The position numbers were made by a program, and so were the translations under genes. Shown one piece after another: positions 8,837 to 64,000 of a stretch of 64,000 nt of DNA (position 1 is the first letter of the stretch; the number at the start of each line of letters is the position of its first letter). The notes below the pieces were generated by a model that had not been told where the DNA came from, ran no database searches, and saw only the letters and a program-made list of their open reading frames with translations. Source of the DNA: an uncultured Verrucomicrobiae bacterium (GTDB lineage: Bacteria > Acidobacteriota > Terriglobia > Terriglobales > Acidobacteriaceae); assembly GCA_963795955.1 (NCBI GenBank), contig CAWCJK010000010.1, positions 37,367 to 101,366 of the forward strand, given 5' to 3'.

Positions 8837-9824
8837 ATGCCGCTTCACCGCTCGCTCGCTCGCATCGCCATCGCCTCCGCGTTGATCCCGCTCATGACCA
8901 CCCAACCCGCCTGGGGCTGGGGCCGCGACGGTCACATGATGATCAATCGCCTCGCTATCCAATACCTCCCGACAGATGTTCCGGCCTTCCTCCGCAACGG
9001 CAACGCCCTCGACATCGTCGAGTACGAAGGACCCGAGCCCGATCGCTGGCGCAATCAGGCCGAGGCGGAACTCTCCAGCACACAAGCCGCCGATCACTTC
9101 ATCGACCTCGAATGGGCCGACCTCGCCGGTGCGCACGTGCACAGCCACGACATCAGGCTGCGGGCCCGAAGGCACGATGCTCCCAAAGAAGCGCTACGAC
9201 TTCATTCGCGCCCTGTACGCCGCCCAGGCGAGGCATCCCGACATCCCGCTTCAGCCCGACAAGGTGGGCATGCAGCCCTGGCAGGTCGAAGAGATCTGGG
9301 AACGGCTCAAATCCGACTTCCGCGATTACCGCAAACTCGCCGCCGCCAATGAAGACACATCCGGCGTGAAAACGATCATCCTCTTCGAAGCCGGTTGGCT
9401 CGGCCACTACGTCGCAGACGGCTCGCAGCCCCTGCACGCCACCATCAACTACAACGGCTGGGCCGAAAAGACCAACCCCAACGGCTACACCACCGAGCAC
9501 CACATCCACTCTCAGTTCGAGTCCGTGTTCGTCAGCGCCAACATCAAACCGCGCGATGTCGACCCGCTCGTCGCAGCCGCCAAGCCTCAGGTCGTGAACG
9601 ACGAGTGGACACAGTACCTCGCCTACATCCATCATTCAAATACACTCGTCGAGAAGACATACCAGCTTGAAAAGGCCGGAGGCTTCACCGATGCGGGCAC
9701 GCCCGACGGGAAGGCCTTCACCGAAGAACGCTTGGCTGCCGGTGCCATCGAGCTTCGCGATCTCATCTACTCCGCCTGGGTCCATTCCGCGGACCCGGTC
9801 CAGGAGTTTCACGGGCCCCAGTAA
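8837..9824 (+). pseudogene. S1/P1-family nuclease, secreted, with a frameshift near 9140-9180.
   Basis: Signal peptide followed by the 'AWGWGRDGHMMINRLA' S1/P1 N-terminal hallmark in ORF 8747..9352. The rest of the fold ('LGHYVADGSQPLHAT') is in ORF 8976..9824 in another frame. Confidence 0.7.
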
Positions 9825-9861: not shown

Positions 9862-10674
9862 ATGCTCTTTTTGCGCAAGGTAGTGCGCGGCTCCAGGGTC
9901 ATCTGGGCCTTTGCCACCTCCCTCACCGAACTCGTCATCCGCCGTCCGCAGACCCGGCGCGCTCGGGCCGAGTGGCTCACCCGATTCTGCCGCCGCGTGC
10001 TCGCCGCCGTCGACGTGACCTGGACCGTCATCGGCCCCATCCCCGAACAGGGGGCCGTGATCACGAACCACCTCACCTACATCGACATCATCGTTCACTC
10101 CGCGCTCCGGCCCTGCGTCTTCGTCTCCGCAATCGAGATCCGCAAGATGCCCCTCATCGGCTGGATCAGCATGATGGCCGGAACCGTCTACGTCACGCGC
10201 GGCGCTGGCGGAAGCGCCGCCAAGGCCGCCGGAGGCATGGCGGAAGGCTTCCGCGACGGCCTGCCCGTGGTCTTCTTCCCCGAAGGCGGCACCGGCGTCG
10301 GCGATGTTCCCCTGCTTCCACTTCGCACCGGTCTGCTGGCGAATGCCATCGAAGAGGGCGCGGACGTTACAGCGGGCTATATCCGGTATGAACTCTCGCC
10401 CGAAGACCTGGCCGCCGGAAGATCCACTCGCGATGACGTCCATTGGGGCGACCAGACCCTCCCAGCCCACCTTTGGAACCTCTTAGGTCTGCGCGCGATC
10501 CACGTCTATATTTACTTCGCGCCACGACCCATCGCGTTCTCGCCAGAGGCCAGAGCCGACCGGAAGATCGCCGCGGACGAGGCACGAACCGTCCTTTTGC
10601 ACTTAAGTGGCACGGACGCCGAAGAAAAACAGGTTACAACCAAAGTAACGTCTGGTAACTTACTCCCGGACTGA
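9862..10674 (+). CDS. 1-acyl-sn-glycerol-3-phosphate acyltransferase (PlsC/LPLAT family).
   Basis: Carries the 'NHLTYIDI' (NHx4D) and 'FPEGG' acyltransferase motifs. Confidence 0.75.
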   Translation: MLFLRKVVRGSRVIWAFATSLTELVIRRPQTRRARAEWLTRFCRRVLAAVDVTWTVIGPIPEQGAVITNHLTYIDIIVHSALRPCVFVSAIEIRKMPLIGWISMMAGTVYVTRGAGGSAAKAAGGMAEGFRDGLPVVFFPEGGTGVGDVPLLPLRTGLLANAIEEGADVTAGYIRYELSPEDLAAGRSTRDDVHWGDQTLPAHLWNLLGLRAIHVYIYFAPRPIAFSPEARADRKIAADEARTVLLHLSGTDAEEKQVTTKVTSGNLLPD

Positions 10675-10699
10675 GTTAGATTACCCTAGACACTCTTCT

Positions 10700-12406
10700 A
10701 TGAACCTGGCCACCGCCGCTGCGACGACGCTGCTGATCCTTGCTTGTGTCAGCCTCGCAGCCATCTACTTCAAGGAACGCGCACGCGCGACACGGCTGCA
10801 AGCCGAAATCGACCGTCTTCGCGGGGAGGCCGCACAGAGCCAGGTCGACCTCCTGCAACGGACCGAACTGGACTCCGTTAAGGACGAGTTCATCTCCACC
10901 GTCTCCCACGAACTCCGCACCCCGCTGACCAGCATCCGCGGTGCGCTCGGCCTGCTCTCCGCCGGCCTGATGGGCAAGGTCGATGACCGGGCCGCCAACC
11001 TGCTGCGCATCGCCAGCACCAACACGGATCGCCTCGTTCGCCTCATCAACGACATCCTGGATCTCGAGCGGATGAGCTCCGGAACCGCTCCCCTCCAGCT
11101 CCGGTCCTGTTCCATGCGCGAACTGATCCTTCAGTCGGTCGACACCATGAGCGCCATGGCAAGCGACGCGAAGGTCAAGATTGACATCGTGCCGGAGCCC
11201 GGCAACCTCCCCCTCATGTGCGAGGTCGACCCCGATCGGCTCCAGCAGGTGCTCACCAACCTGCTCTCCAATGCCATCAAGTTCTCGCCAGCCGAGTCAA
11301 CCATCCGCGTCATCACAGAAGCCCGCCCCGGAGAGATGATCGTCCGCGTCGAGGACCACGGACGCGGCGTACCCGCCGAAAAACTCGAGAGCATCTTCGA
11401 GCGCTTCCATCAGGTCGACCCCGGCGACTCGCGCCAAAAGGGCGGCACAGGGCTGGGTCTCGCGATCTGCAAAACCATCATGGTGCAGCACGGCGGCCAC
11501 ATCTGGGCCGAGCGCAACGACCGCAGAGTGCCCGGGTGACGTTGGCAGCACGTTCTGCCTGCGCCTGAACCGTACCGACCGTGACAACAACCTCGCAGGC
11601 GATGCGAGCGCACAAGGCGCGATCCTGGTCGTCGACGACGACCCCGGTGTCCGTCATGTCGTAGCCGAACACGTGCGTAACCAGGGATACACCGTCATCG
11701 AGACCGAGTCCGGCCAGAGCGCGCTGCAGATCGCCGGCCGCGAGCCGCTCGAAGCCATTCTGCTCGACCTCTACATGCCCGGGCTGACCGGCTGGGAAAC
11801 GATCGAGAAGCTCAAGGCAAACCCCGCCACGGCCGCCATTCCGGTCGTGGTCCTCAGCGTCCTCTCGCCCGCGCATGCGCTCTGGGCCGCGCGGTCCCGC
11901 TGCTTGGCAAGGCGCAGGGTTGGATCCAGAAGCCGTTCAACCCCACCCTCTTGGTCGCGGAGCTCGGACGTGTTCTGCACCGTGGCCACGGGCCTGCACG
12001 CATTCTGCTGGTGGAAGACGACCCGGACATCGCCACCTTGGTGCTGTCCAGCTTCGAAACCAACCCGCGGGACATGAACGTACGCGTCGAGCACGTCTCC
12101 TCTGTACAGGACGCCATGCGCGCCTGCGAGACGCAGATGCCCGACGTGCTGATCCTCGACTTGAATCTTCCGGACGGCTCCGGTTTCGCTCTGGTCAAGT
12201 GGCTTCGGCGTCAGCCGAAGCTTTGCTCATTGCCCCTGGTCGTGTACTCCGGCCGGGAGGTCACCCCGGAAGAGATGCAACAGCTGCGTCTCGGTCCGAC
12301 ACAGTTCTTAACCAAAGCTCGTGTTCAGCCGAAGGAGATAGAAGATCTGGTCTTTGCGATGGTTCGCCAAACACAGAATCCCACGCGTCATGGACTCTCC
12401 GCGTAA
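10700..12406 (+). pseudogene. Hybrid sensor histidine kinase (HisKA, HATPase_c, REC, REC), with frameshifts near 11531-11537 and about 11880-11950.
   Basis: The TM N-terminus plus HisKA 'STVSHELRTPLTSIRG' and HATPase_c read up to '...WAERNDRRVPG*'. In the +1 frame the kinase end continues 'GSTFCLRLNRTD' into a REC domain 'ILVVDDDPGV...LLDLYMPGLTGWE...KPF'. A second REC ('ILLVEDDPDIA...ILDLNLPDGSG') follows. The first shift lies inside the homopolymeric run 'gcccgggtg'. Confidence 0.8.
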
Positions 12407-36392: not shown

Positions 36393-36468
36393 TGGCAGGG
36401 GAGCTCGGATTCGAACCGAGAAGTCCGGTTTTGGAGACCGGCAGTTTAACCGTTGAGCTTACTCCCCT
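36393..36468 (-). tRNA. tRNA-Trp (anticodon CCA).
   Basis: Reverse complement 'AGGGGAGTAAGCTCAACGGTTAAACTGCCGGTCTCCAAAACCGGACTTCTCGGTTCGAATCCGAGCTCCCCTGCCA'. Cloverleaf with anticodon loop CTCCAAA. Confidence 0.9.
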
Positions 36469-39004: not shown

Positions 39005-39079
39005 TGGAGCGGGAGACGGGAATCGAACCCGCGACCAACAGCTTGGAAGGCTGTGACTCTACCACTGAGTTACTCCCGC
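39005..39079 (-). tRNA. tRNA-Gly (anticodon TCC).
   Basis: Reverse complement 'GCGGGAGTAACTCAGTGGTAGAGTCACAGCCTTCCAAGCTGTTGGTCGCGGGTTCGATTCCCGTCTCCCGCTCCA'. Confidence 0.9.
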
Positions 39080-39149
39080 AGCACACGCTGCCGCGACCTG
39101 AGCATCCGAGGAAACGAACCGATCGAGCCGCGGTTGCCGTGTACAAATC

Positions 39150-39225
<76 letters not shown>

Positions 39226-39487
39226 TTCGTGCCACAGCACCCAAACCGCGGGCGCCGCTTCTAACTCTACAGCTAACTCTATCGCGCCCTGAGCCGCGCA
39301 AGCACGACCCGAAACGCAAAAAACCCAAGCAGCAGCCACGTGAACTGCTGAAACTTGCCCGGCTCCATCGTGCGCCACGCAAGCACCGCCAACAAACCCA
39401 ACACCACAAGCGCAACCATCATGCGCTGATTGCCACCCGGCTCCATCGGCAAACCCATCACCGCCGCCCGCCAGGGCCCGAAAAACG

Positions 39488-39575
39488 TGGTGCACAGGGG
39501 AGGATTCGAACCTCCGTACCTCGATGAGGGGCAGATTTACAGTCTGCTGCCATTAACCACTCGGCCACCTGTGCC
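39488..39575 (-). tRNA. tRNA-Tyr (anticodon GTA) with a long variable arm.
   Basis: Reverse complement '...GGTGGCCGAGTGGTTAATGGCAGCAGACTGTAAATCTGCCCCTCATCGAGGTACGGAGGTTCGAATCCTCCCCTGTGCACCA'. The 5' boundary is accurate to +/-1 nt. Confidence 0.85.
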
Positions 39576-39711
39576 CTGCGCTGCCACTCGACTCACCCAT
39601 TCCAAGACACATGGACACCGCTGTCGTAAGCGCGGCTTCATCATGTCGCGGAGGACTGCAGGCGGGACGACTGACAGTACAACCAATCTCAATCCTAGCG
39701 CTGTCCGAACG

Positions 39712-39787
39712 TGGAGCTGGCGAAGGGATTCGAACCCCCGACCGCCTGATTACAAATCAGGTGCTCTACCAGCTGAGCTACGCCAGC
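39712..39787 (-). tRNA. tRNA-Thr (anticodon TGT).
   Basis: Reverse complement 'GCTGGCGTAGCTCAGCTGGTAGAGCACCTGATTTGTAATCAGGCGGTCGGGGGTTCGAATCCCTTCGCCAGCTCCA'. Confidence 0.9.
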
Positions 39788-55836: not shown

Positions 55837-56897
55837 ATGACGGACCTCGCGCCTCCCACGCCCGCAAAGACCTCAGCCAGCGCCGTCGCTGGAGCCGCAG
55901 CCAGCACCAAGCTCGGCACCTCGCTGCTGGACCGCGTCGGAAACACCCCGCTCATCCGCCTCGACCGGCTGACCGCAACACCTCCCGGGCATCACCATCC
56001 TCGGCAAAGCCGAGTGGGCCAACCCCGGCGGCAGCGTCAAAGACCGCGCCGCCTCCGCCATCGTCTCCGATGCCCAGCGCAAAGGCCAACTCACCCCCGG
56101 CAAGACTCTGCTCGACGCGACCAGCGGCAACACCGGCATCGCCTACGCCATGCTCGGCGCCGCCCAGGGCTTCCCCGTCACGCTCTGCATGCCCTCCAAC
56201 GTCAGCCCGGAGCGCAAGCACATCCTCGCCGCCTACGGTGCCGAGATCATCTACACCAACCCCGGCGAAGGCTCCGACGGCGCCATCCGCATGGCCCGCA
56301 AACTCGCCGCCGAGCACCCCGAAAAATACTTCTACGCCGACCAGTACGGCAACGAAAACAACTGGCGCGCCCACTACTACGGCACCGCCAACGAGATCTG
56401 GGAGCAGACCCACGGCCGCCTCACCCATTTCATCGCCGGCCTCGGCACCAGCGGCACCTTCATGGGCACCACCCGCCGCCTCCGCGAGCTCAACCCCGCC
56501 ATCCACTGCTTCTCCATGCAGCCCGACTCGCCCTTCAACGGCCTCGAAGGCCTCAAGCACATGCCCACCGCCATCGTCCCGCCCATCTACGACGAGACAC
56601 CTCGCCGAGCGCAACATCGACATGCCCACCGAGCGCGCCTACGCCATGTGCAAGCGCCTCGCCCAAACCCAGGGCCTGCTCGTAGGCATCTCCGCCGGTG
56701 CCGCCGTCGCCGCCTGCCTCGACGTAGCCGAAGAAGAAGCCCGCGCCGGCCGCGAAGCCATCATCGTCACCATCCTCTGCGACTCCGCCGACAAATACCT
56801 GAGCGAACGCTTCTGGTCAGAACCCACCCCCGAAGCCGCCGCACACGACGCCCTCGACACGCGAACTCTACGCCGGCCAAAACGCCTAGCCAGCTAG
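55837..56897 (+). pseudogene. cysM: Cysteine synthase of the Mycobacterium CysM type (PLP-dependent; the CysO-thiocarboxylate-dependent O-phosphoserine sulfhydrylase subfamily), with frameshifts near 55980 and 56600.
   Basis: 'LLDRVGNTPLIRL...', 'SGNTGIAYAMLGAAQGFPVTLCMPSNVSPERK', 'YADQYGNENNWRAHYYGTANEI', 'AGLGTSGTFMGT', and C-terminal 'GISAGAAVAACLDVA' in a third frame. The QYGN..N...HY.GT and PxxYDE segments resemble Mtb CysM rather than CysK. Confidence 0.75.
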
Positions 56898-56926: not shown

Positions 56927-57090
56927 CCCTTTTGGGTTGTCATCCCCGAAGGGGATCTGCCCTTTTGGCTTGTCATCCCCGAAGGGGATCTGCGTTGTTG
57001 TTGCACTTGCTTTCCTTCTGTCATTCCGAAGGGAACCTGCGTCAGCTTTTGCACTAGCTTTTCTTTCTGTCATTCCCGAAGGGAACCTGC
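56927..57090. repeat. Tandem array of four short palindromic (hairpin) repeat units between cysM and the JAMM gene.
   Basis: Units 56927-56960 and 56961-56993 ('CC(C)TTTTGG(G/C)TTGTCATCCCCGAAGGGGATCTGC', stem ATCCCC-GAA-GGGGAT). Units 57001-57040 and 57049-57090 ('TTGCACT(T/A)GCTTT(T)C(T)TTCTGTCATTCC(C)GAAGGGAACCTGC', stem TTCC(C)-GAA-GGGAA). Confidence 0.8.
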
Positions 57091-57116: not shown

Positions 57117-57632
57117 ATGACCACAGTCCACGACTCCAACCACTACGCCGCCCAACGCACCCCACAAACCACCGCGGACATCCCCCTCGCCATCCCCCAA
57201 CCCATCTACAACGCCCTACGCACCCACGGCGAAGAAACCTACCCACACGAGTGCTGCGGGATCCTCCTGGGCCGCTCCACGCCCGAAGCCATCACCATCC
57301 ACGACCTCATCCGAGCCGGCAACACCCGCTCTGACAGCGCCCACAACCGATACAACATCTCCCCCGCCGACCTCATCCGGGCCCAGCGCGAAGCCCGCAC
57401 CCGCTCGCTCGACATCGTAGGCTTCTACCACTCCCACCCCGACCACCCCGCCTTCTGGTCCCCCACCGACCTCGCCGAAGCCCACTGGTACGGCTGCGCC
57501 TACGTCATCACCTCCGTCGACGGCTCCACCCCACCGCCACGCGCCCACACCACCAACAGCTTCCTCCTCACCGGCACCACTGAAGAAGACAAGGCGTTCG
57601 CCAGCCAGGCCATCCGACTCACAGCCGAATAA
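57117..57632 (+). CDS. JAMM/MPN+ (Mov34) family metalloisopeptidase, Mec+-like.
   Basis: 'ETYPHECCGILLG' and 'VGFYHSHPDHPAFWSPTDL' give the complete JAMM motif (E...HxHx7Sx2D). The ORF track's 5' extension translates the repeat array and is not credible. Confidence 0.8.
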   Translation: MTTVHDSNHYAAQRTPQTTADIPLAIPQPIYNALRTHGEETYPHECCGILLGRSTPEAITIHDLIRAGNTRSDSAHNRYNISPADLIRAQREARTRSLDIVGFYHSHPDHPAFWSPTDLAEAHWYGCAYVITSVDGSTPPPRAHTTNSFLLTGTTEEDKAFASQAIRLTAE

Positions 57633-57721
57633 CCGCCCGCGACCTCACCGAAGTGATTGACGCCCAGCCACATCCGCGCCGATAGTGGCTTCGTCAGGAA
57701 TTTGGCACGAGAGGTTCGTCT

Positions 57722-59459
57722 ATGGGCCGGCACTGCCGCCGCGCTGCACTGCTTGCTCTGCTTTCTCTGCCCGCGCTCTCACACGCGCAAAAGTCCCCCG
57801 GCAACACCCTCACCATCAGCACCCGCCTCATCTACGTCGACGTCGTCGTCCGCGACGACTACGGCCGTCCCGCCCAGGGCCTCACCGCCGCCGACTTCTC
57901 CGTCAAAGAAGACGGCCGCCCGCAACAGATCGTCTTCTTCCAGGACAGCGACACCGCCCGCCCCACCCCGTCACCCGCCAGCCCCAGCAACACCAGCACC
58001 ACCACACCCAGCCAACCCGGCATCGAGTTCACCAACGTAGCCCCGGCCAGCGTCACCGACCCCGCCGCCAACGTCATCCTGCTCGACCTCCTCAACACCC
58101 CCGTCACCGACCAGCTCTACGCCATCCGCCAGCTCATCGCCTTCTGCAAAAAGCTGCCGCCCGGCCATCGCTTCGCGCTCTTCCTCCTCACCAATCGCCT
58201 CCACGTCCTGCAAGGCCTCACCGGCAGCTCCGACCAACTGCTCGCCGCCGCCAGCAAGCTCACCGCCAACGACCTCCAGCTCGCCGACTCACGCGACGCT
58301 CGCATGCAGATGGCGGACATCGTCACCGCCTTCGCCAAGGCCATAGGCCCCGACCCGGGCGGTTCCGCCGGCCACATGCGCGCCGAACTGGACAACGAGC
58401 AGGCCGAGAACCTCGCGCAACGCTTCCGCACCACCGGCGACGCCTTCGCCCAGATCGCGCGCGCCGTCTCCGGCTACCCCGGCCGCAAAAACCTCCTCTG
58501 GCTCGCCGAAGACTTCCCCTTCGGCGTCGGCGCGCAGCTTCAAATGGACCGCGCCGACGAGGCCCTCGACGTCCGCGACACCAACAGCCTCGTAGCCAAC
58601 CAGCAGATCGCCCTTTACCCGATCAGCCTCGCCGGCCTGCAAACCGAAGGCGTCGGCGCCGCCTCCAACGGCCAGGGCGAGGTCTCGCTCATCGGCGGCC
58701 CCACCGGTTCAGCCTCCAATCCGCAGGCCAACGACACCCTCCGCGACCAGTTCACGGCCCGCACGTCGATGTACTACGCCATGAACGATCTCGCTCACAA
58801 CACCGGCGGCGAAGCCTTCCATGGCACCAACGACATAGCCGGCAGCATCCGCCGCGCCGTCGACGACGGCTCCCAGTACTACACCCTCGCCTATCGCCCC
58901 TCGAACCAGAAGTCGGACGGCCACCTTCGCGCAGATCAGCATCGCCCTCGCCAGGCACGGCTATCACCTCAGCTATCGCCGCAGCTACCTCGCCACACCC
59001 GAAGCCGACGGCACGCGCGGCGTCGACCTCGAACTCGCCGCCGCCCTGCAGCCCGGCACACTCGACGCCAGCCTGCTCCGTCTCCGCGCCGATCTGGTGC
59101 AGGACCCCGCCAGCCACCACGTCGCCGTCGACATCACGCTTGACGCCAGCGATCTCTCCTACCGCATCGACCCCGCCGGCCATCGCCACACCCAGCTTCT
59201 CGCCGAGCTGATCGCCCTGCCCGCTCCAGGCGCCAACACCAAACCCACCCCGCCCCCACAAACCCAGGCCGTCCTCAACCTCGACCTCGACCCCACCCAA
59301 TACGCCGGCCTGCTCCGCACCGGCCTCCACTTCCGCGAGCAACTCCCCGCCACCTTCGCCAACCAGGACCTCCGCCTCGGCGTAGCCGAAACCAACACCC
59401 ACCGTTTCGGCACCCTGACCATGCCTCGCAACCCCGGCCCAATCACTCCAGCGAATTGA
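57722..59459 (+). pseudogene. VWFA-related acidobacterial-type secreted protein (vWA domain), with a frameshift near 58920.
   Basis: Signal peptide. 'LIYVDVVVRDDYGRPAQGLTAADFSVKEDGRPQQIVFFQ' is the hallmark N-terminus of the Acidobacteria VWFA-related family. The C-terminal roughly 120 aa are in ORF 59097..59459. Confidence 0.7.
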
Positions 59460-59571
59460 ACGCCACGCGCCGATATGGATCCGGCATCGCTCGGCTATCG
59501 GCGCACACCCATATCGAACTTCGATATAAAGTCGCTCCTGCAAGCCCATTCCCGCTCTGAAAGACAGGCGT

Positions 59572-60435
59572 ATGAGGTGCATCCGCAAACCCTCACGTTG
59601 GCTGCTGCTGCTGCTGCTCGCCCTTTGCGCCGTTCCCAACCTTTGGTCGCAAGCCGGTCCTCCCTTCCAGACCGACGATCCAGTCCCGGTCGACTACGGC
59701 CACTATGAGTTCTACGTCTTCGGCGCCGCGGACGGCACACCGGCCGAGATGGACTCCATCGGCCCCGCATTCGAGTTCAATTGGGGCGCTTTGCCGCGGC
59801 TTCAACTCCACGTCATCTTTCCCTTCGGCAGCATTCACCCTTCAAACAACCCCATCTACGCTCCCGGCGGGACCGGCCCCTCCGCCTTCGGCTACACCGA
59901 CACCGAACTGGGCGCAAAGGTCGCCTGGATCAAGGAAGGCAAATACCTCCCTCAGATCGGGTCGTTCACCATGTTTGAACTCCCCACCGGAAACTATGAC
60001 CGCGGCCTCGGGATAGGCCGTGTCTGGTACAAGCTGCCCGTCTGGGCCTACAAAAAGATCGGCTCATGGAGCCTCGACGGCGGCGCCGGCTATGCCATCG
60101 TCCCGCAGACCGGCTATCGCAACTACCCCTACGGCTCCTTCCTGGTCGAGAAGAACGTGAACAAGCGTCTAGATCTTTCCGCCGAAATCTTCGCGCATGC
60201 GCGTGAAGGCTTCGCCGCCGCACAAACAGAAGCCTCGACCATGCTCGATGCCGGCGGCTACTTTCACTTCAACTCGCCGGGCCTGCAGTTACTCTTCGCA
60301 TATGGCCACTCCATCGCGGGCCAGACAGAAAACTACGCCTACCTCGGTCTCTACAAGACCTGGGGCAAAGACAAAGGCAAAGACGCTTCCACTGACACAC
60401 CGCAACCCAGACCACCGGATCCCGGCCAGCACTAG
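59572..60435 (+). CDS. Outer-membrane beta-barrel protein (putative transporter, 'MetA-pathway of phenol degradation'-like family).
   Basis: Signal peptide. 'PPFQTDDPVPVDYGHYEFYV' and alternating amphipathic beta strands ending in an aromatic-rich C-terminal strand. Confidence 0.6.
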   Translation: MRCIRKPSRWLLLLLLALCAVPNLWSQAGPPFQTDDPVPVDYGHYEFYVFGAADGTPAEMDSIGPAFEFNWGALPRLQLHVIFPFGSIHPSNNPIYAPGGTGPSAFGYTDTELGAKVAWIKEGKYLPQIGSFTMFELPTGNYDRGLGIGRVWYKLPVWAYKKIGSWSLDGGAGYAIVPQTGYRNYPYGSFLVEKNVNKRLDLSAEIFAHAREGFAAAQTEASTMLDAGGYFHFNSPGLQLLFAYGHSIAGQTENYAYLGLYKTWGKDKGKDASTDTPQPRPPDPGQH

Positions 60436-60486
60436 CCGCCGCCACAACACCGCACAAGCTGCCATCCAATCACTCCCGGAGAGCCC

Positions 60487-61059
60487 ATGGAGATCACACT
60501 TCGCAGCTTCTGGACCAGTGTTCACGGCCTGGGCTTTGGCGCACTCTATCTCCTCGCCTGTTCCGGCGCGCTCATCGAGTTGTATCGCTTCACTCACCCC
60601 TCCGTCACACATGAACCCGCACCTGCCAGCGCGCGTTTCCTCCGCGCCTACTTGGTCACCATGGCCGTCATCGCCTGGATCACGGTTCTCACCGGAGCCT
60701 ACGTCCTGTACCCGTGGTACCGCGCCGCGCTCCCTCCCGGCACCACCAACCTCGCTCTCTTCCCTCAACGCCTCCTGATGTCCAGTCCCAGGACCATCGG
60801 TTGGCACACCATTGGCATGGAATGGAAAGAGCACGTCGCCTGGTTCGCCCCCATGTCCATCACCATGGTCGCCGTGGTCCTCATCCGCTACGGTCGCGAA
60901 CTAAGGCATCACAAGTCGCTCCGCGCTGCTGTGCTCTGGTTCGCCGCCGCGTCCTTCATCGCCGCGGCTATCGCCGGCTTCTTCGGAGCGATGCTCAATA
61001 AGTACGCCCCCATCCAGGGCGGTCGCACCATGCAGTGGAGCGCCGGACAACACACATGA
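60487..61059 (+). CDS. Hypothetical integral membrane protein (4-5 TM).
   Basis: Intact 190-aa hydrophobic ORF with no family recognised. Confidence 0.5.
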   Translation: MEITLRSFWTSVHGLGFGALYLLACSGALIELYRFTHPSVTHEPAPASARFLRAYLVTMAVIAWITVLTGAYVLYPWYRAALPPGTTNLALFPQRLLMSSPRTIGWHTIGMEWKEHVAWFAPMSITMVAVVLIRYGRELRHHKSLRAAVLWFAAASFIAAAIAGFFGAMLNKYAPIQGGRTMQWSAGQHT

Positions 61060-61403
61060 GCGACTTGAATCAGCCGCCATCCATACACGCCGCCGTTCGA
61101 CGCAATGGCTCAGGCGCTGCCGCCATCCTCGCCACCGCTGTAGGCTGCTTCGCTCTCGCCCTTCTTGCCCTGGTCGCCGATAAGTCTCCCACCTTCAAGA
61201 GCAGCATGATCTTCTACCGGCCCACCGGCCCACTCTCCGGCGTGACATCGGTAGCGATCCTCATCTGGATCGCGCTCTGGCTCTTGCTCGACCTCCGCTG
61301 GAAGAACCGAAGCCTCGCGTTGCGGCCGATCTGCCTGATCTCCTTCGTTCTCCTCGCTCTCAGCTTCCTGCTGACCTTCCCTCCGATAGCGGACCTCTTC
61401 TAA
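61056..61403 (+). CDS. Hypothetical integral membrane protein (about 115 aa, 3 TM), translationally coupled to the upstream gene.
   Basis: 'MSDLNQPP...' start overlaps the upstream stop (ATGA). The protein is hydrophobic. Confidence 0.5.
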   Translation: MSDLNQPPSIHAAVRRNGSGAAAILATAVGCFALALLALVADKSPTFKSSMIFYRPTGPLSGVTSVAILIWIALWLLLDLRWKNRSLALRPICLISFVLLALSFLLTFPPIADLF

Positions 61404-61539
61404 GCCTTCGGACAATCGGCGTTCGTCGGATCGCACGCCGTCGGGTGGCGAAACGAACCACAGTGGATCTTCAACAACGGGTTAAGCCGATCCTCTACAC
61501 TGACTGCGCCAAACTCTCGCCCCCAAAAGGCCGTCCTGC

Positions 61540-62367
61540 ATGCGTCTACCCGCCCTCACCCTGCTTACCTGCTCCTTCGCGTTCGCAACCATCGCTTGCG
61601 CCCAGCAATCGGCATCGGCCACGCTCACGCCCGACCAGCAAACCCAATTAGAAGCCGCGAAGAAGGACTTCAACGCCGCTCACTGGTCCGAGGCCGTCAC
61701 AGAGTTGAAGGCCCTGCACGCCGCCGTTCCCACAAACGCCGACGTCGCGAAGTTCGCCGCCGAAGCGTCCCTGAACAGCAACGACCCCGCCACCGCACTC
61801 ACGCTCCTCCAGCCCATCGCGGAAGCCTCGCCCGACGACTGGCAGGCGCACGCGCTGCTCGCCCGCGCCTACGCCGAATCACACCAGGACGCAAAGCGCG
61901 ACGCCGCACTCCAACAACTCCTCGCGCTCCACAAAACCACAACGGACGTCCACTTCCAGCAACTCACGCAATTCATGGTCGAAAGGGTCGCGCTGCCCTC
62001 CGGCCGCCTCGACATCTTCTACTCGCTCGTGCCCTGGAGCCGCTACAACATCTACGAGATGGCGCGCGCCTACAACGCTTCAGGTCAGCAGACCATGCGC
62101 ATCACCCTGGAGAGCAACGATGCCGACCAGGCACTCTGGGCGCAGAAACACGCCAAGGAAGCCGCTGCCGGCATGCGCGAGTTCTCCATGGACGGCTACA
62201 CAGAACAGGTAAGCACGACAGGCGAACACACCCAGAGCCACATCACCTTCGGCTTCTTCGACGGCCAGCCCAGCTACGCGACCGTGCGCGACCGCATGGT
62301 CGCCATAGCCTCCGGAAAGGGCAACCCCATCAGTTCCACCAGCGGCATCCATCCCCAGAGCCAGTAA
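61540..62367 (+). CDS. Hypothetical secreted protein with an N-terminal TPR-like helical region.
   Basis: Signal peptide 'MRLPALTLLTCSFAFATIACAQQ'. Helical repeats. Intact 275 aa. Confidence 0.5.
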   Translation: MRLPALTLLTCSFAFATIACAQQSASATLTPDQQTQLEAAKKDFNAAHWSEAVTELKALHAAVPTNADVAKFAAEASLNSNDPATALTLLQPIAEASPDDWQAHALLARAYAESHQDAKRDAALQQLLALHKTTTDVHFQQLTQFMVERVALPSGRLDIFYSLVPWSRYNIYEMARAYNASGQQTMRITLESNDADQALWAQKHAKEAAAGMREFSMDGYTEQVSTTGEHTQSHITFGFFDGQPSYATVRDRMVAIASGKGNPISSTSGIHPQSQ

Positions 62368-62524
62368 CTTCGCGTCGATTCGCACCTCGCCGCATCCAAA
62401 TGCGGGAAGGTGATAATCAGCCCATCCACCTGACCCAACTCGAGTGGTTTGCCGCCCGCGCTGACCAAAGGCCGCCGGTGCTTGAAGGCCGCGCGAAGTT
62501 CGTGCCCCTCAGAGATCACGAAAT

Positions 62525-62677
62525 CTACTTCGACGGCTCCTGCGGCGGTGAATTTGGTGACGGCTCCTGCGGCACCGAAGCCTTGTAGCCGGAGTCCGCG
62601 TTCTCCGCCTTCCCTTTTATCTGGTCAGCTTTGCCTTCCGACTCCAATTTCTCAGTTAGCACTCGCTTGGTGCTCAT
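62525..62677 (-). CDS. CsbD-like small stress protein with a Pro-rich repeat tail.
   Basis: 'MSTKRVLTEKLESEGKADQIKGKAENADSGYKAS' resembles the CsbD family (KGKxxE...EGKADQxKG). The tail 'PQEPSPNSPPQEPSK' is encoded by the 15-nt direct repeat GACGGCTCCTGCGGC x2. Confidence 0.4.
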   Translation of the reverse strand: MSTKRVLTEKLESEGKADQIKGKAENADSGYKASVPQEPSPNSPPQEPSK

Positions 62678-62774
62678 CTCTGTCCGCCTCCTTTGGCGGG
62701 CCATCAGCCTACCACTCTGGGCGGGCACTCCTCACTCTGGATCACCGGCACCCTCCCCGCGTCATAATGAATCC

Positions 62775-63083
62775 ATGAAGATCCACATCCCCACACCGCT
62801 GCGCGCCTACGCCGGCCAGCAGGAGACCGTCATCGTCACCGGCACCACCGTCGCGGCCGGGCTCCAGGGCCTCATCGACGCCTACCCCGCCCTCAAGCAC
62901 CACCTCTTCACCCCTGACGGCAAGCTCCGCTCCTTCGTCAACGTCTACGTCGGCGACGAAGACATGCGCTACCTCCCCGAGGGCGAAAACACCGGCGTCC
63001 CCGACGCCGCCGAGATCACCATCATCCCCTCGATCGCCGGCGGCGCGCCCGCACCCTCCAGCGCACTGGGCTGTTGCCGCTAA
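62775..63083 (+). CDS. MoaD/ThiS-family sulfur-carrier protein with a 12-residue C-terminal extension after the Gly-Gly (a CysO/QbsE-like pro-protein).
   Basis: 'MKIHIPTPLRAYAGQQETVIVTGTTVAAGLQGLIDAYPALKHHLFTPDGKLRSFVNVYVGDEDMRYLPEGENTGVPDAAEITIIPSIAGG' is a beta-grasp MoaD/ThiS fold ending in GG, followed by 'APAPSSALGCCR' and the stop. Confidence 0.7.
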   Translation: MKIHIPTPLRAYAGQQETVIVTGTTVAAGLQGLIDAYPALKHHLFTPDGKLRSFVNVYVGDEDMRYLPEGENTGVPDAAEITIIPSIAGGAPAPSSALGCCR

Positions 63084-63150: not shown

Positions 63151-63678
63151 ATGTTCCTGAAGGGTCTGTTCGCGTTCGCGTTCCTCACCGGCACTGCGGC
63201 CTACGCCGCGACAGGCCTCCCCGATGCCTGCGGCAGCCAAAACGTGAAGTTCGATGTGAGCACCGACAAGCCACTGCAGTCTGCGGCGACTCCGGAGACC
63301 GGCAAGGCGCAGATTGTCTTCATCGAGAGTCTCCACAAAAACTCGAACGTGCTCATCTATCCAACCATTCGCTTCGGCCTTGATGGCTCCTGGGCCGGTG
63401 CCGTAAAGGGCAGCTCCTACTTCGCCATCTCGGTGCCTCCCGGCGAGCATCACCTCTGTGCCGCATGGCAATCGCACTTCAAGTCCTTTCGCGATCAACC
63501 AGGAGCGATGCCCCTCACCGTGGAACCCGGCAAAATCTACTTCGTCGACTACAGCGTGAACTTCATCCCGACGGATGGCGGCGCACAGCCGGTGATCTCG
63601 TTCGCGCAGATCAATGACGACCAGGCAAAGTTCCTCCTCAAGAGCTATCCGCTCGCCACCTGGACGACAAAGCCCTAG
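63151..63678 (+). CDS. Hypothetical secreted protein (DUF2846-like).
   Basis: Signal peptide 'MFLKGLFAFAFLTGTAAYAA'. 'GKAQIVFIESLHKNSNVLIYPTIRFGLDGSWAGAVKG' resembles DUF2846 lipoproteins. Confidence 0.45.
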   Translation: MFLKGLFAFAFLTGTAAYAATGLPDACGSQNVKFDVSTDKPLQSAATPETGKAQIVFIESLHKNSNVLIYPTIRFGLDGSWAGAVKGSSYFAISVPPGEHHLCAAWQSHFKSFRDQPGAMPLTVEPGKIYFVDYSVNFIPTDGGAQPVISFAQINDDQAKFLLKSYPLATWTTKP

Positions 63679-64000
63679 CCGAACACGCATTCTTGTCCGC
63701 GCACCTTCATCGACTACGGCGCGCAGGACAACTTCTCGCACATCCCCCTCGGCGCCCACGAGACCGCCGCGCGTCTCTCCCAGGCCGGTGTCTCCTACAC
63801 CCTCGAGGTCTATAAGGGAAACCACGGCAACCACATCAGAAACCGCATCGGGGACCGTCTGCTGCGCTGGATCTCCGCCCACATCGCCCACGAAACCGCC
63901 CCGCCGTCCCCGCCCCGCCGTCGCCCTCGTAAACTCAACGAAGCGCCGCGCACGGCCTCCGCCGAAACTTTGCTGGCGCCAAAGCATCTGCAACTGGGAC
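63679..64000 (+). pseudogene. C-terminal fragment of an esterase/alpha-beta hydrolase with no start codon. It is in the same frame immediately after the stop of the upstream gene and runs off the window.
   Basis: 'TFIDYGAQDNFSHIPLGAHETAARLSQAGVSYTLEVYKGNHGNHIRN...' looks like the C-terminal part of a carbohydrate-esterase/serine-hydrolase fold. There is no ATG/GTG/TTG between the TAG at 63676-63678 and this segment. Confidence 0.3.

Follow-up and report, generated by a model that had tools for sequence, protein, structure and literature searches.

The stretch of DNA considered here (the window) comprises 64,000 nucleotides (nt) of contig CAWCJK010000010.1 (positions 37,367 to 101,366; assembly GCA_963795955.1) from an uncultured bacterium that the GTDB places in the Acidobacteriaceae. 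Near the end of the window, an open reading frame (ORF) at 62775–63083 on the plus strand encodes a small sulfur carrier of the CysO type, the product of which continues for 12 residues beyond its Gly-Gly motif (GG). Upstream on the same strand lie cysM, which encodes a cysteine synthase (55837–56889), and, adjoining the 3' side of cysM, a gene for a JAMM/MPN+ metalloprotease (57117–57632). A preliminary description, made from the letters of the window, had placed the carrier about 5 kb from this cysM–JAMM pair; 5,142 nt separate the JAMM stop codon from the start of cysO. In most related genomes, the same genes are joined by moeZ in one compact operon. The extended carrier, its putative pathway and the tail that follows its GG are the subjects of this analysis.

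The carrier gene and its product

Translation of 62775–63083 gives MKIH...IIPSIAGG followed by APAPSSALGCCR and a stop codon. The ORF is as had been described, except that the protein has 102 residues and not 103, the 103rd codon being the stop. Codons 1–90 (62775–63044) encode a beta-grasp core, which ends with IIPSIAGG and contains no Cys, and the two Gly codons (residues 89 and 90) occupy 63039–63044. The Pfam profile ThiS (PF02597) matches residues 3–90 over its full length (1–76 of 76), and the last matched position is the GG. When the PDB was searched by sequence, the top match was Mycobacterium tuberculosis CysO (3DWG_C; E=4e-14, ~40% identity), in an alignment that spans residue 3 to the GG, which is the C-terminus of CysO itself; the second match was 4N6E_B, the CysO partnering BexX. 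In an AlphaFold2 model built with 28 homologues, the core has confidence scores (pLDDT) of 87–93, and residues 88–102 score below 50. The best Foldseek matches of this model are the CysO structures 3DWG_C, 4N6E_B and 3DWM_A, with template-modelling (TM) scores of 0.75–0.88. The ThiS/MoaD beta-grasp fold ending IIPSIAGG that had been proposed from the letters is thus borne out by Pfam, by the PDB match and by structure prediction, in which CysO structures again come first.

The carrier also has all 41 invariant columns of the homologue alignment A1, and it is 78% identical to the operon-embedded orthologue in L004, one of the related loci compared below (L-numbers are locus labels). Its highest NCBIfam scores, 49 bits for SAMP1 and 24 bits for archaeal MoaD, fall short of the respective cut-offs. 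Judged by these matches and by the predicted fold, the gene product is a CysO-type ThiS/MoaD beta-grasp sulfur carrier.

In databases, carriers of this kind are mostly annotated only as "MoaD/ThiS family protein". JGI names many of the ~100-aa carriers 'adenylyltransferase/sulfurtransferase', which is the name of the neighboring E1-like activating enzyme (E1); the label, which is wrong for the carriers, has probably been transferred from genes fused or adjacent to them.

The extension beyond Gly-Gly

The 12-codon tail APAPSSALGCCR (63045–63080, plus strand) is predicted to be disordered (pLDDT <50) and, by comparison with homologous tails, is presumed to be a propeptide removed by the JAMM protease. 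As 12 residues follow the GG in the primary product, the GG would be free only after proteolytic maturation.

Such tails were surveyed in two samples: a protein-database search with the carrier, which returned thousands of relatives and from which tail statistics were taken for the 120 closest, and a genomic sample of 78 distinct cysO tails from GTDB genomes. All of the 120 closest homologues have residues after the GG (1–23 aa, mean 8), as do 77 of the 78 distinct genomic copies, the sole exception stopping directly at the GG. With distant clades included, tail lengths range from 0 to 28 aa. The 12-aa extension of the window carrier is therefore a real feature of its family, as first proposed.

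The composition of the tails is highly biased. Cys accounts for 37% of tail residues in the 120 homologues and for 2 of the 10,800 residues in their 90-residue cores. Cys is the first tail residue in 73 of these homologues; of the 77 non-empty genomic tails, 56 begin with C, S, T or A. The Cys-Cys-Arg (CCR) end, which had been thought unusual, is instead a conserved hallmark of the clade, occurring in 67 of the 120 homologues; isolates such as Granulicella cerasi (CCSPLAAGCCR) and Granulicella sp. L46 (SAATGCCR) have it as well. The middle portion of the window tail, APAPSSALG, is unconserved even in the closest relatives and looks unconstrained.

The JAMM and cysM genes

The JAMM gene encodes a Mec+-like protein of 171 aa, the start of which is supported by a 171-aa orthologue in L004. 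Its frame is unbroken, with 67% identity over 168 aa to the JAB protein of the L004 operon. The product matches Prok-JAB (PF14464, E=1e-23) and PDB 2KCQ (2e-23), and NCBIfam describes it as desampylase-like. By direct reading, the translation contains HECCG and HSHPDHPAFWSPTD, which represents HxHx7Sx2D; the complete motif that had been claimed for this gene is present, and the E...HxHx7Sx2D signature is intact.

The cysM gene, once three 1-nt insertions are corrected (see below), encodes 349 aa, as indicated by matches to PALP and TIGR01138 and by alignment with orthologues. Its product is a fold-type II pyridoxal-phosphate enzyme of the CysK/CysM class (PALP, 4e-68), and the TIGR01138 cysM score (353 bits) is below the cut-off of 394. 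Enterobacterial CysM (2BHS, E. coli/Salmonella) scores higher (227 bits) than M. tuberculosis CysK1 (2Q3B, 201 bits) and M. tuberculosis CysM (3DWG_A, 191 bits). In a BLASTP alignment with the M. tuberculosis CysM sequence, which is identical to 3DWG_A, the C-terminal part ...AAHDALDTELYA is aligned with ...DDAETALEGQLWA and the match reaches the M. tuberculosis C-terminus (...HDALDTELYA vs ...AETALEGQLWA), whereas the alignment with Escherichia coli CysM, which lacks a C-terminal tail of this type, ends ~20 residues earlier. In M. tuberculosis CysM, the C-terminal extension closes over the active site. At the position of M. tuberculosis Arg220, which we take to be the residue recognizing the phosphate of O-phosphoserine, the window CysM has Lys (GLKHM vs ALRNM), so that the positive charge is kept and the residue differs. 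The suggestion of a Mycobacterium-type CysM thus holds for the C-terminal tail and fails for overall similarity (191 vs 227 bits, a comparison of scores rather than a tree). For a dependence of this CysM on CysO, operon context is a stronger argument than similarity.

A compact operon in relatives and its split form in the window

The gene order was compared with that in 80 related Acidobacteriaceae loci from the GTDB and in Illumina-assembled relatives. About 70 of the 80 loci and the two closest Illumina-assembled relatives have a compact, same-strand cysM–JAMM–cysO–moeZ operon, in which cysM encodes a PALP protein and moeZ a ThiF-rhodanese protein; L004, L085 and L086 are examples of this one-strand arrangement. 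The JAMM gene here lies between cysM and cysO, the gap between JAMM and cysO is ~45 nt and that between cysO and moeZ ~100–140 nt. The cysO orthologues inside these operons are 75–87% identical to the window carrier, and flanking genes for an M50/CBS protease and for rsmI are common to the window and the relatives' operons. Because the compact operon is present in ~70 of the 80 relatives, the arrangement in the window is read as the same operon in split form: sequence comparison indicates that it is a cysM–JAMM–cysO–moeZ operon broken open by a 5.1-kb insertion.

The inserted block, delineated by its ORFs and Pfam matches, extends from 57633 to 62774 between JAMM and cysO. It contains genes for an uncharacterized secreted protein of 473+ aa, a MetA-pathway-like outer-membrane protein and two small membrane proteins, and also carries a TPR protein gene and a CsbD-like gene (minus strand). 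Homology to the ancestral JAMM–cysO spacer is kept only in ~20 nt upstream of the cysO ATG, and the window sequence 3' of cysO bears no relation to the cysO–moeZ spacer of the relatives. The operon is altered also between cysM and JAMM, where a repeat search found tandem repeats of 33 bp (two copies) and 48 bp (2.5 copies) at 56927–57090, filling the 227-nt spacer. The 33-bp copies are 97% identical, and the repeats have GGGG/CCCC hairpin cores; they look like intergenic elements of the repetitive extragenic palindromic (REP) type. Relatives have no such spacer and show a stop/start overlap (in L004, the JAB start at 9385 precedes the end of cysM at 9388). In Granulicella cerasi, the operon is loosened like that of the window, more mildly.

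In three of the loci, cysO and moeZ are fused in frame, namely in L027 (Granulicella rosea DSM 18704, 10001–11500), L069 (1679–3142) and L083 (10001–11491). Many database representatives, such as P0184, P0239 and P0265, are fused likewise, forming carrier–linker–E1 proteins of ~490–500 aa. These fusions suggest that cleavage past the GG is obligatory in this carrier family.

A putative thiocarboxylate-dependent cysteine pathway

In the CysO pathway, MoeZ thiocarboxylates CysO, CysM couples CysO-thiocarboxylate to O-phosphoserine, and Mec+ hydrolyses the CysO-cysteine adduct (PMC3227635). Extended carriers that are matured by JAMM proteases include QbsE (GG followed by CF), which is processed with QbsD, and CxnE (GG followed by 10 aa), which is processed with CxnF (PMC5925218). 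A combination of ThiS/MoaD, E1-rhodanese, JAB and cysteine synthase genes, including that of the acidobacterium Solibacter usitatus, is listed in Table 1 (row 4c) of Iyer, Burroughs and Aravind (2006), where it is also suggested that JAB frees the carrier C-terminus. The pathway, the operon class and JAMM-processed extended carriers are thus already known.

With a probability of roughly 0.8, the window gene encodes the carrier of such a protein-thiocarboxylate cysteine pathway (CysM, Mec+-like JAMM, CysO and MoeZ), the operon of which is split by the 5.1-kb insertion. The preliminary description had proposed a split CysO/CysM/Mec+ system with a pro-carrier trimmed by the JAMM enzyme, and this proposal gains support from the operon in ~70 of the 80 loci and from analogy with the systems above. 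The carrier would be made as a precursor, in which the GG is capped by the disordered 12-residue tail. The JAMM metalloprotease would cut past the GG, the same enzyme being expected to cut the chemically equivalent CysO-GG-Cys amide in the cycle. The freed GG carboxylate would then be adenylated and thiocarboxylated by a MoeZ-type E1-rhodanese encoded outside the window, and CysM would condense the thiocarboxylate with an activated serine substrate. Finally, the JAMM enzyme would release cysteine and regenerate CysO.

We infer maturation by the JAMM enzyme because of the analogy with QbsE/QbsD and CxnE/CxnF and because Mec+ hydrolyses CysO-GG-Cys. As a Mec+-type enzyme cuts CysO-GG-Cys in each cycle, it would also mature a precursor that has Cys or a small residue past the GG. 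Tails that begin with Cys (73 of the 120 homologues) reproduce the natural Mec+ substrate, which supports this idea. Thiocarboxylation of the carrier and its use by CysM would likewise follow from operon context and from the known systems.

Several findings weigh against the assignment. No E1 or moeZ gene was found anywhere in the 64-kb window, even at E<=5. The window tail begins with Ala, not Cys. The cysM gene is frame-broken in the assembly, and the pathway could be decaying here. Lastly, CysM is by overall score nearer to the enterobacterial CysM of the O-acetylserine type than to M. tuberculosis CysM.

An intein-like N-to-S acyl shift at Gly-Cys, which would generate a thioester independently of an E1, was considered as another route and rejected, because the operon includes moeZ and because an initial Cys, Ser or Thr is absent from many tails, that of the window among them.

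Cysteine codons and the terminal motif of the tail

The Cys codons of the tails differ from those of the neighboring genes. In the 78 distinct tails, 106 Cys codons are TGT and 26 are TGC (~80% rare TGT), whereas in cysM, JAMM and moeZ of the same loci, 84 are TGT and 1172 are TGC (TGT, 7%). The TGT excess corresponds to an odds ratio of 57, loci being counted without phylogenetic correction. The bias is seen at first, internal and terminal Cys codons of the tails, and the third bases of the other tail codons are ordinary. At its terminus, the window gene has TGT TGC CGC TAA (63072–63083, plus strand; Cys-Cys-Arg-stop), a variant of the clade-wide TGT TGT CGC TAG. The exact sequence TGTTGTCGCTAG forms the last 12 nt of 19 of the 27 distinct genes ending with CC[R/H]. 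In these 27 genes, third-position identity is 0.83 in the last three sense codons, compared with 0.50 in the core, where synonymous sites are saturated. TAG is the stop codon in 22 of 28 genes, compared with 22% in neighboring genes. These features suggest selection, for nucleotide sequence or codon choice, on the Cys codons and on the terminal TGT-TGY-CGC-stop. The elements that are new here are a Cys-rich tail on a nearly Cys-free core, the rare TGT codons and the last 12 nt conserved at synonymous sites.

The terminal motif might take part in RNA structure. For L004, L008, L085 and L086, the subclade closest to the window (alignment A5; L004:10286–10330), RNAalifold predicts a hairpin that holds the last cysO codons and the stop, the other arm of which is a conserved non-coding spacer block, CTCGCGCATCGGCGC, and not the Shine-Dalgarno (SD) sequence. 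In L020, L022 and L023, a different hairpin partner, CGCGAGAAC, is located directly past the cysO stop, and the spacer beyond it is very rich in C and poor in G. In these RNAalifold analyses of 4–5 sequences, the hairpins are conserved and variation is too low for covariation. Minimum-free-energy folds of L036, L045, L047 and L060 contain attenuator-like pairing with no consistent target across loci, and when the tail was paired with the cysO–moeZ spacer in RNAduplex, the loci shared no target near the moeZ start or ribosome-binding site. In the window, the cysO 3' end and downstream region folds no better than shuffled sequences (z=+1.5), the downstream partner sequence being gone, and promoter and terminator scans gave weak consensus matches only.

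At the other end of the gene, the hexamer CATAAT, which resembles a -10 box, is located 6 nt before the cysO ATG (62763–62768, plus strand), with no SD sequence; the window thus retains CATAAT-N6-ATG (62763–62777). The pattern (G/C)ATAAT-N6-8-ATG is present in 25 of 85 loci, compared with 0.8% expected by chance; loci with the box at this position include L001, L003, L004, L006, L008, L012–L024, L028, L043, L062, L085 and L086. In the window's clade, cysO has no SD sequence, and distant clades have a normal AGAAAGG-type SD sequence. The conservation of the box suggests an internal promoter for a leaderless cysO mRNA. Such a putative promoter of its own would possibly let cysO be expressed alone after the operon split.

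Two explanations of these features, both of which we regard as unlikely, assign different roles to the tail. In the first, the tail is also a cis-acting sensor. Rare UGU codons would pause ribosomes when Cys-tRNA is low, thereby opening the hairpin that holds the last codons and the stop; the opened hairpin would raise expression of the downstream moeZ or stabilize the transcript, and the JAMM protease would discard the sensor peptide. For the Granulicella-type clade, the corresponding and rather doubtful model is that cysO is the first ORF of a leaderless cysO–moeZ transcript, the UGU-UGU-CGC-UAG hairpin tail of which senses cysteinyl-tRNA and is removed by the JAMM enzyme. The reversed Cys codon usage, the identity of the last 12 nt despite saturated synonymous sites in the core, the two sets of consensus hairpins and the -10-like box at leaderless spacing are all consistent with this idea. 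In a protein that serves Cys biosynthesis, a Cys-free core followed by a tail of 37% Cys is also a paradox, which a sensing role of the tail would resolve. Mycobacterial polycysteine ORFs act in a similar manner, and two consecutive Cys codons are enough for this action (bioRxiv 10.1101/834739). Against a sensor stand the absence of consistent pairing between the Cys tract and the moeZ ribosome-binding site across loci, alignments that are too conserved to reveal covariation, and the phylogenetic non-independence of the counts. Slippage at a single ancestral TGT TGT could also have multiplied the TGT repeats. Moreover, Cys-rich tails are kept without an adjacent moeZ in L002, L003, L005, L016, L062 and the window, and in the window the downstream partner is lost.

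In the second explanation, the tail is tolerated junk: the JAMM protease would trim anything past the GG, and the stop codon would drift freely. The large variation in tail length and sequence would fit this idea, as would the unconserved APAPSSALG, the tails of distant clades, in which the GG is followed by one arbitrary residue (R, L, N, D, A or Y) or by a random peptide, and the moeZ fusions of some loci. However, the Cys content, the CCR end in 67 of the 120 homologues, a codon preference reversed for Cys alone and conservation of the last 12 nt at the nucleotide level are not explained by drift; as the G+C content at third codon positions (GC3) is ~80% in this genome, all of these would be unexpected.

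If the tail is a sensor, ribosome-mediated amino-acid attenuation would no longer be confined to dedicated leader peptides and would include a case in which the disposable tail belongs to a working protein; sulfur regulation in Acidobacteria would then be open to simple tests. If it is not, the carrier family would provide a natural series of substrates for analysis of Mec+-type JAMM protease specificity.

In a proteome study of Granulicella sp. WH15 (PMC7315648), cysO (GWH15_13825) is among the ORFs with BacMet matches to genes of metal-ion homeostasis, by a short match to the copper ATPase CopA. This match conceivably arises through the Cys-rich tail, and metal binding by the tail is a possibility.

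Integrity of the locus and assignment to other pathways

In the assembly, cysM occupies three reading frames. Nucleotide alignment with orthologues locates 1-nt insertions near 55976, 56597 and 56860, and removal of one base at each site gives a clean 349-aa ORF. All three breaks are +1 and in ACAC-type contexts, and together they amount to one extra codon. Other conserved genes that are intact in orthologues are frame-broken as well, namely those for flotillin (~45775, minus strand), rsmI (~55005) and a 145-aa protein (~55440, minus strand). Because housekeeping and conserved genes are also broken, the cysM insertions are read as assembly error, and the frame breaks as a whole are probably assembly indels rather than pseudogenization.

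A common ACAC or CACCTC context for all breaks was considered and set aside, as it fits the three cysM sites and is unconfirmed in the other genes. A window-wide GC3 frame-switch scan gave no frameshift count, gene boundaries and frameshifts being inseparable in it. A possible further frame break is located at ~58900 in the gene at 57722–59459.

The frame breaks, the split operon and the lack of moeZ in the window would be compatible with the extension being an assembly artefact, or with the whole system being a decaying remnant; we consider this explanation very improbable. The window tail continues in frame after the GG and terminates with the family-typical GCCR-stop, and direct reading of the sequence indicates that neither alternative frame meets an early stop past the GG. 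A frameshift artefact is thereby excluded for practical purposes. Also, the two closest relatives, which are Illumina/SPAdes contigs, have 12-aa tails (CPAISSKAPCCR and TSAVFPTHRCCR), both ending with CCR; tails of the same length and ending in Illumina-assembled relatives support the view that the extension does not arise from assembly. As for decay, the carrier has all 41 invariant residues, the JAMM gene is intact, and the frame breaks in housekeeping genes point to sequencing error rather than decay.

A role of the carrier in another pathway (molybdopterin, thiamin, tRNA thiolation or SAMP/TtuB-like conjugation), with coincidental nearness to cysM and JAMM, would fit the SAMP1 and archaeal MoaD scores, which are the best in NCBIfam and both sub-cut-off, and the position of the window carrier alone amid unrelated genes, but is exceedingly improbable given the 75–87% identical orthologues inside cysM–JAB–cysO–moeZ operons, the first rank of M. 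tuberculosis CysO by structure and sequence, and the absence of moaE, thiG or ttuA-type partners adjoining the carrier in the loci inspected.

Comparison with known systems

The cysteine pathway proposed here resembles the M. tuberculosis CysO/CysM/Mec+/MoeZ system in having a CysO-like beta-grasp carrier, a JAMM protease and a CysM-class enzyme with the M. tuberculosis-type C-terminal tail; the operons of the window's relatives also encode a ThiF-rhodanese E1. The gene order differs, being cysM–JAMM–cysO–moeZ in Acidobacteriaceae and, presumably, mec–cysO–cysM in M. tuberculosis. M. tuberculosis CysO ends at the GG, whereas the Acidobacteriaceae carrier is encoded with residues past it. The window CysM scores higher overall with enterobacterial CysM, its residue at the position of Arg220 is Lys, and its gene belongs to a split operon for which no E1 is found in the window.

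Like QbsE and CxnE, the carrier is encoded with residues past the GG (2 and 10 residues, respectively, in those proteins), and a JAMM protein from the same cluster has been proposed or shown to expose the GG. Unlike the Acidobacteriaceae tails with their clade-wide CCR or TGT TGT CGC TAG end, the tails of QbsE and CxnE are not Cys-rich and have no reported conservation at the codon level. A further difference, suggested by analogy, is that the JAMM enzyme here would mature the carrier and also release the product, as a part of primary cysteine metabolism. In the methionine pathway of Wolinella, the HcyS-Ala carrier, with one residue past the GG, reportedly works with the JAMM protease HcyD, which is said to carry out both carrier maturation and homocysteine release.

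The relatives' operons contain the same four gene families as operon class 4c of Iyer et al. (2006), and Cys-rich tails, codon bias and cysO–moeZ fusions are not described in the passages of that survey consulted. As the presence of the pathway in acidobacteria was predicted in 2006, its finding here is a routine, useful annotation. What this adds for a clade of abundant soil bacteria is that the carrier would nearly always need trimming (77 of the 78 genomic tails), that it is sometimes fused to the E1, and that the trimmed piece bears a cysteine-codon signature conserved at synonymous sites.

Leaderless polycysteine ORFs of mycobacteria act as cysteine-responsive attenuators, in which cysteine is sensed by the pausing of ribosomes with the involvement of an RNA duplex (Canestrari et al., bioRxiv 10.1101/834739). 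As in those ORFs, successive Cys codons close the reading frame of cysO, a gene of the cysteine pathway begins ~100 nt downstream in the relatives, translation may start without a leader, and the Cys codons would form part of an RNA duplex. The polycysteine ORFs are short dedicated leaders, whereas cysO is a full functional gene, and consistent pairing with the downstream SD sequence across loci is not seen here; the comparison is made from sequence alone. In the window, Cys-Cys-Arg-stop is present with no Cys-pathway gene downstream, whereas in the relatives moeZ follows ~100–140 nt downstream.

Other features of the window

Downstream of cysO, a DUF2846-like gene (63151–63678) is directly followed by an ORF fragment (63679–64000, plus strand), which resembles the C-terminus of an esterase or alpha/beta-hydrolase (...FIDYGAQDNFSHIPLGAHE...YKGNHGNH...) and has no Pfam match. 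This fragment may have been left behind when moeZ was lost by rearrangement.

Rfam analysis of the window operon and four related loci gave no match in the operon, the only matches being tRNA genes at 36–40 kb. These are located on the minus strand at 36398–36467 and 39008–39787, as a cluster of four and a single gene ~2.5 kb off.

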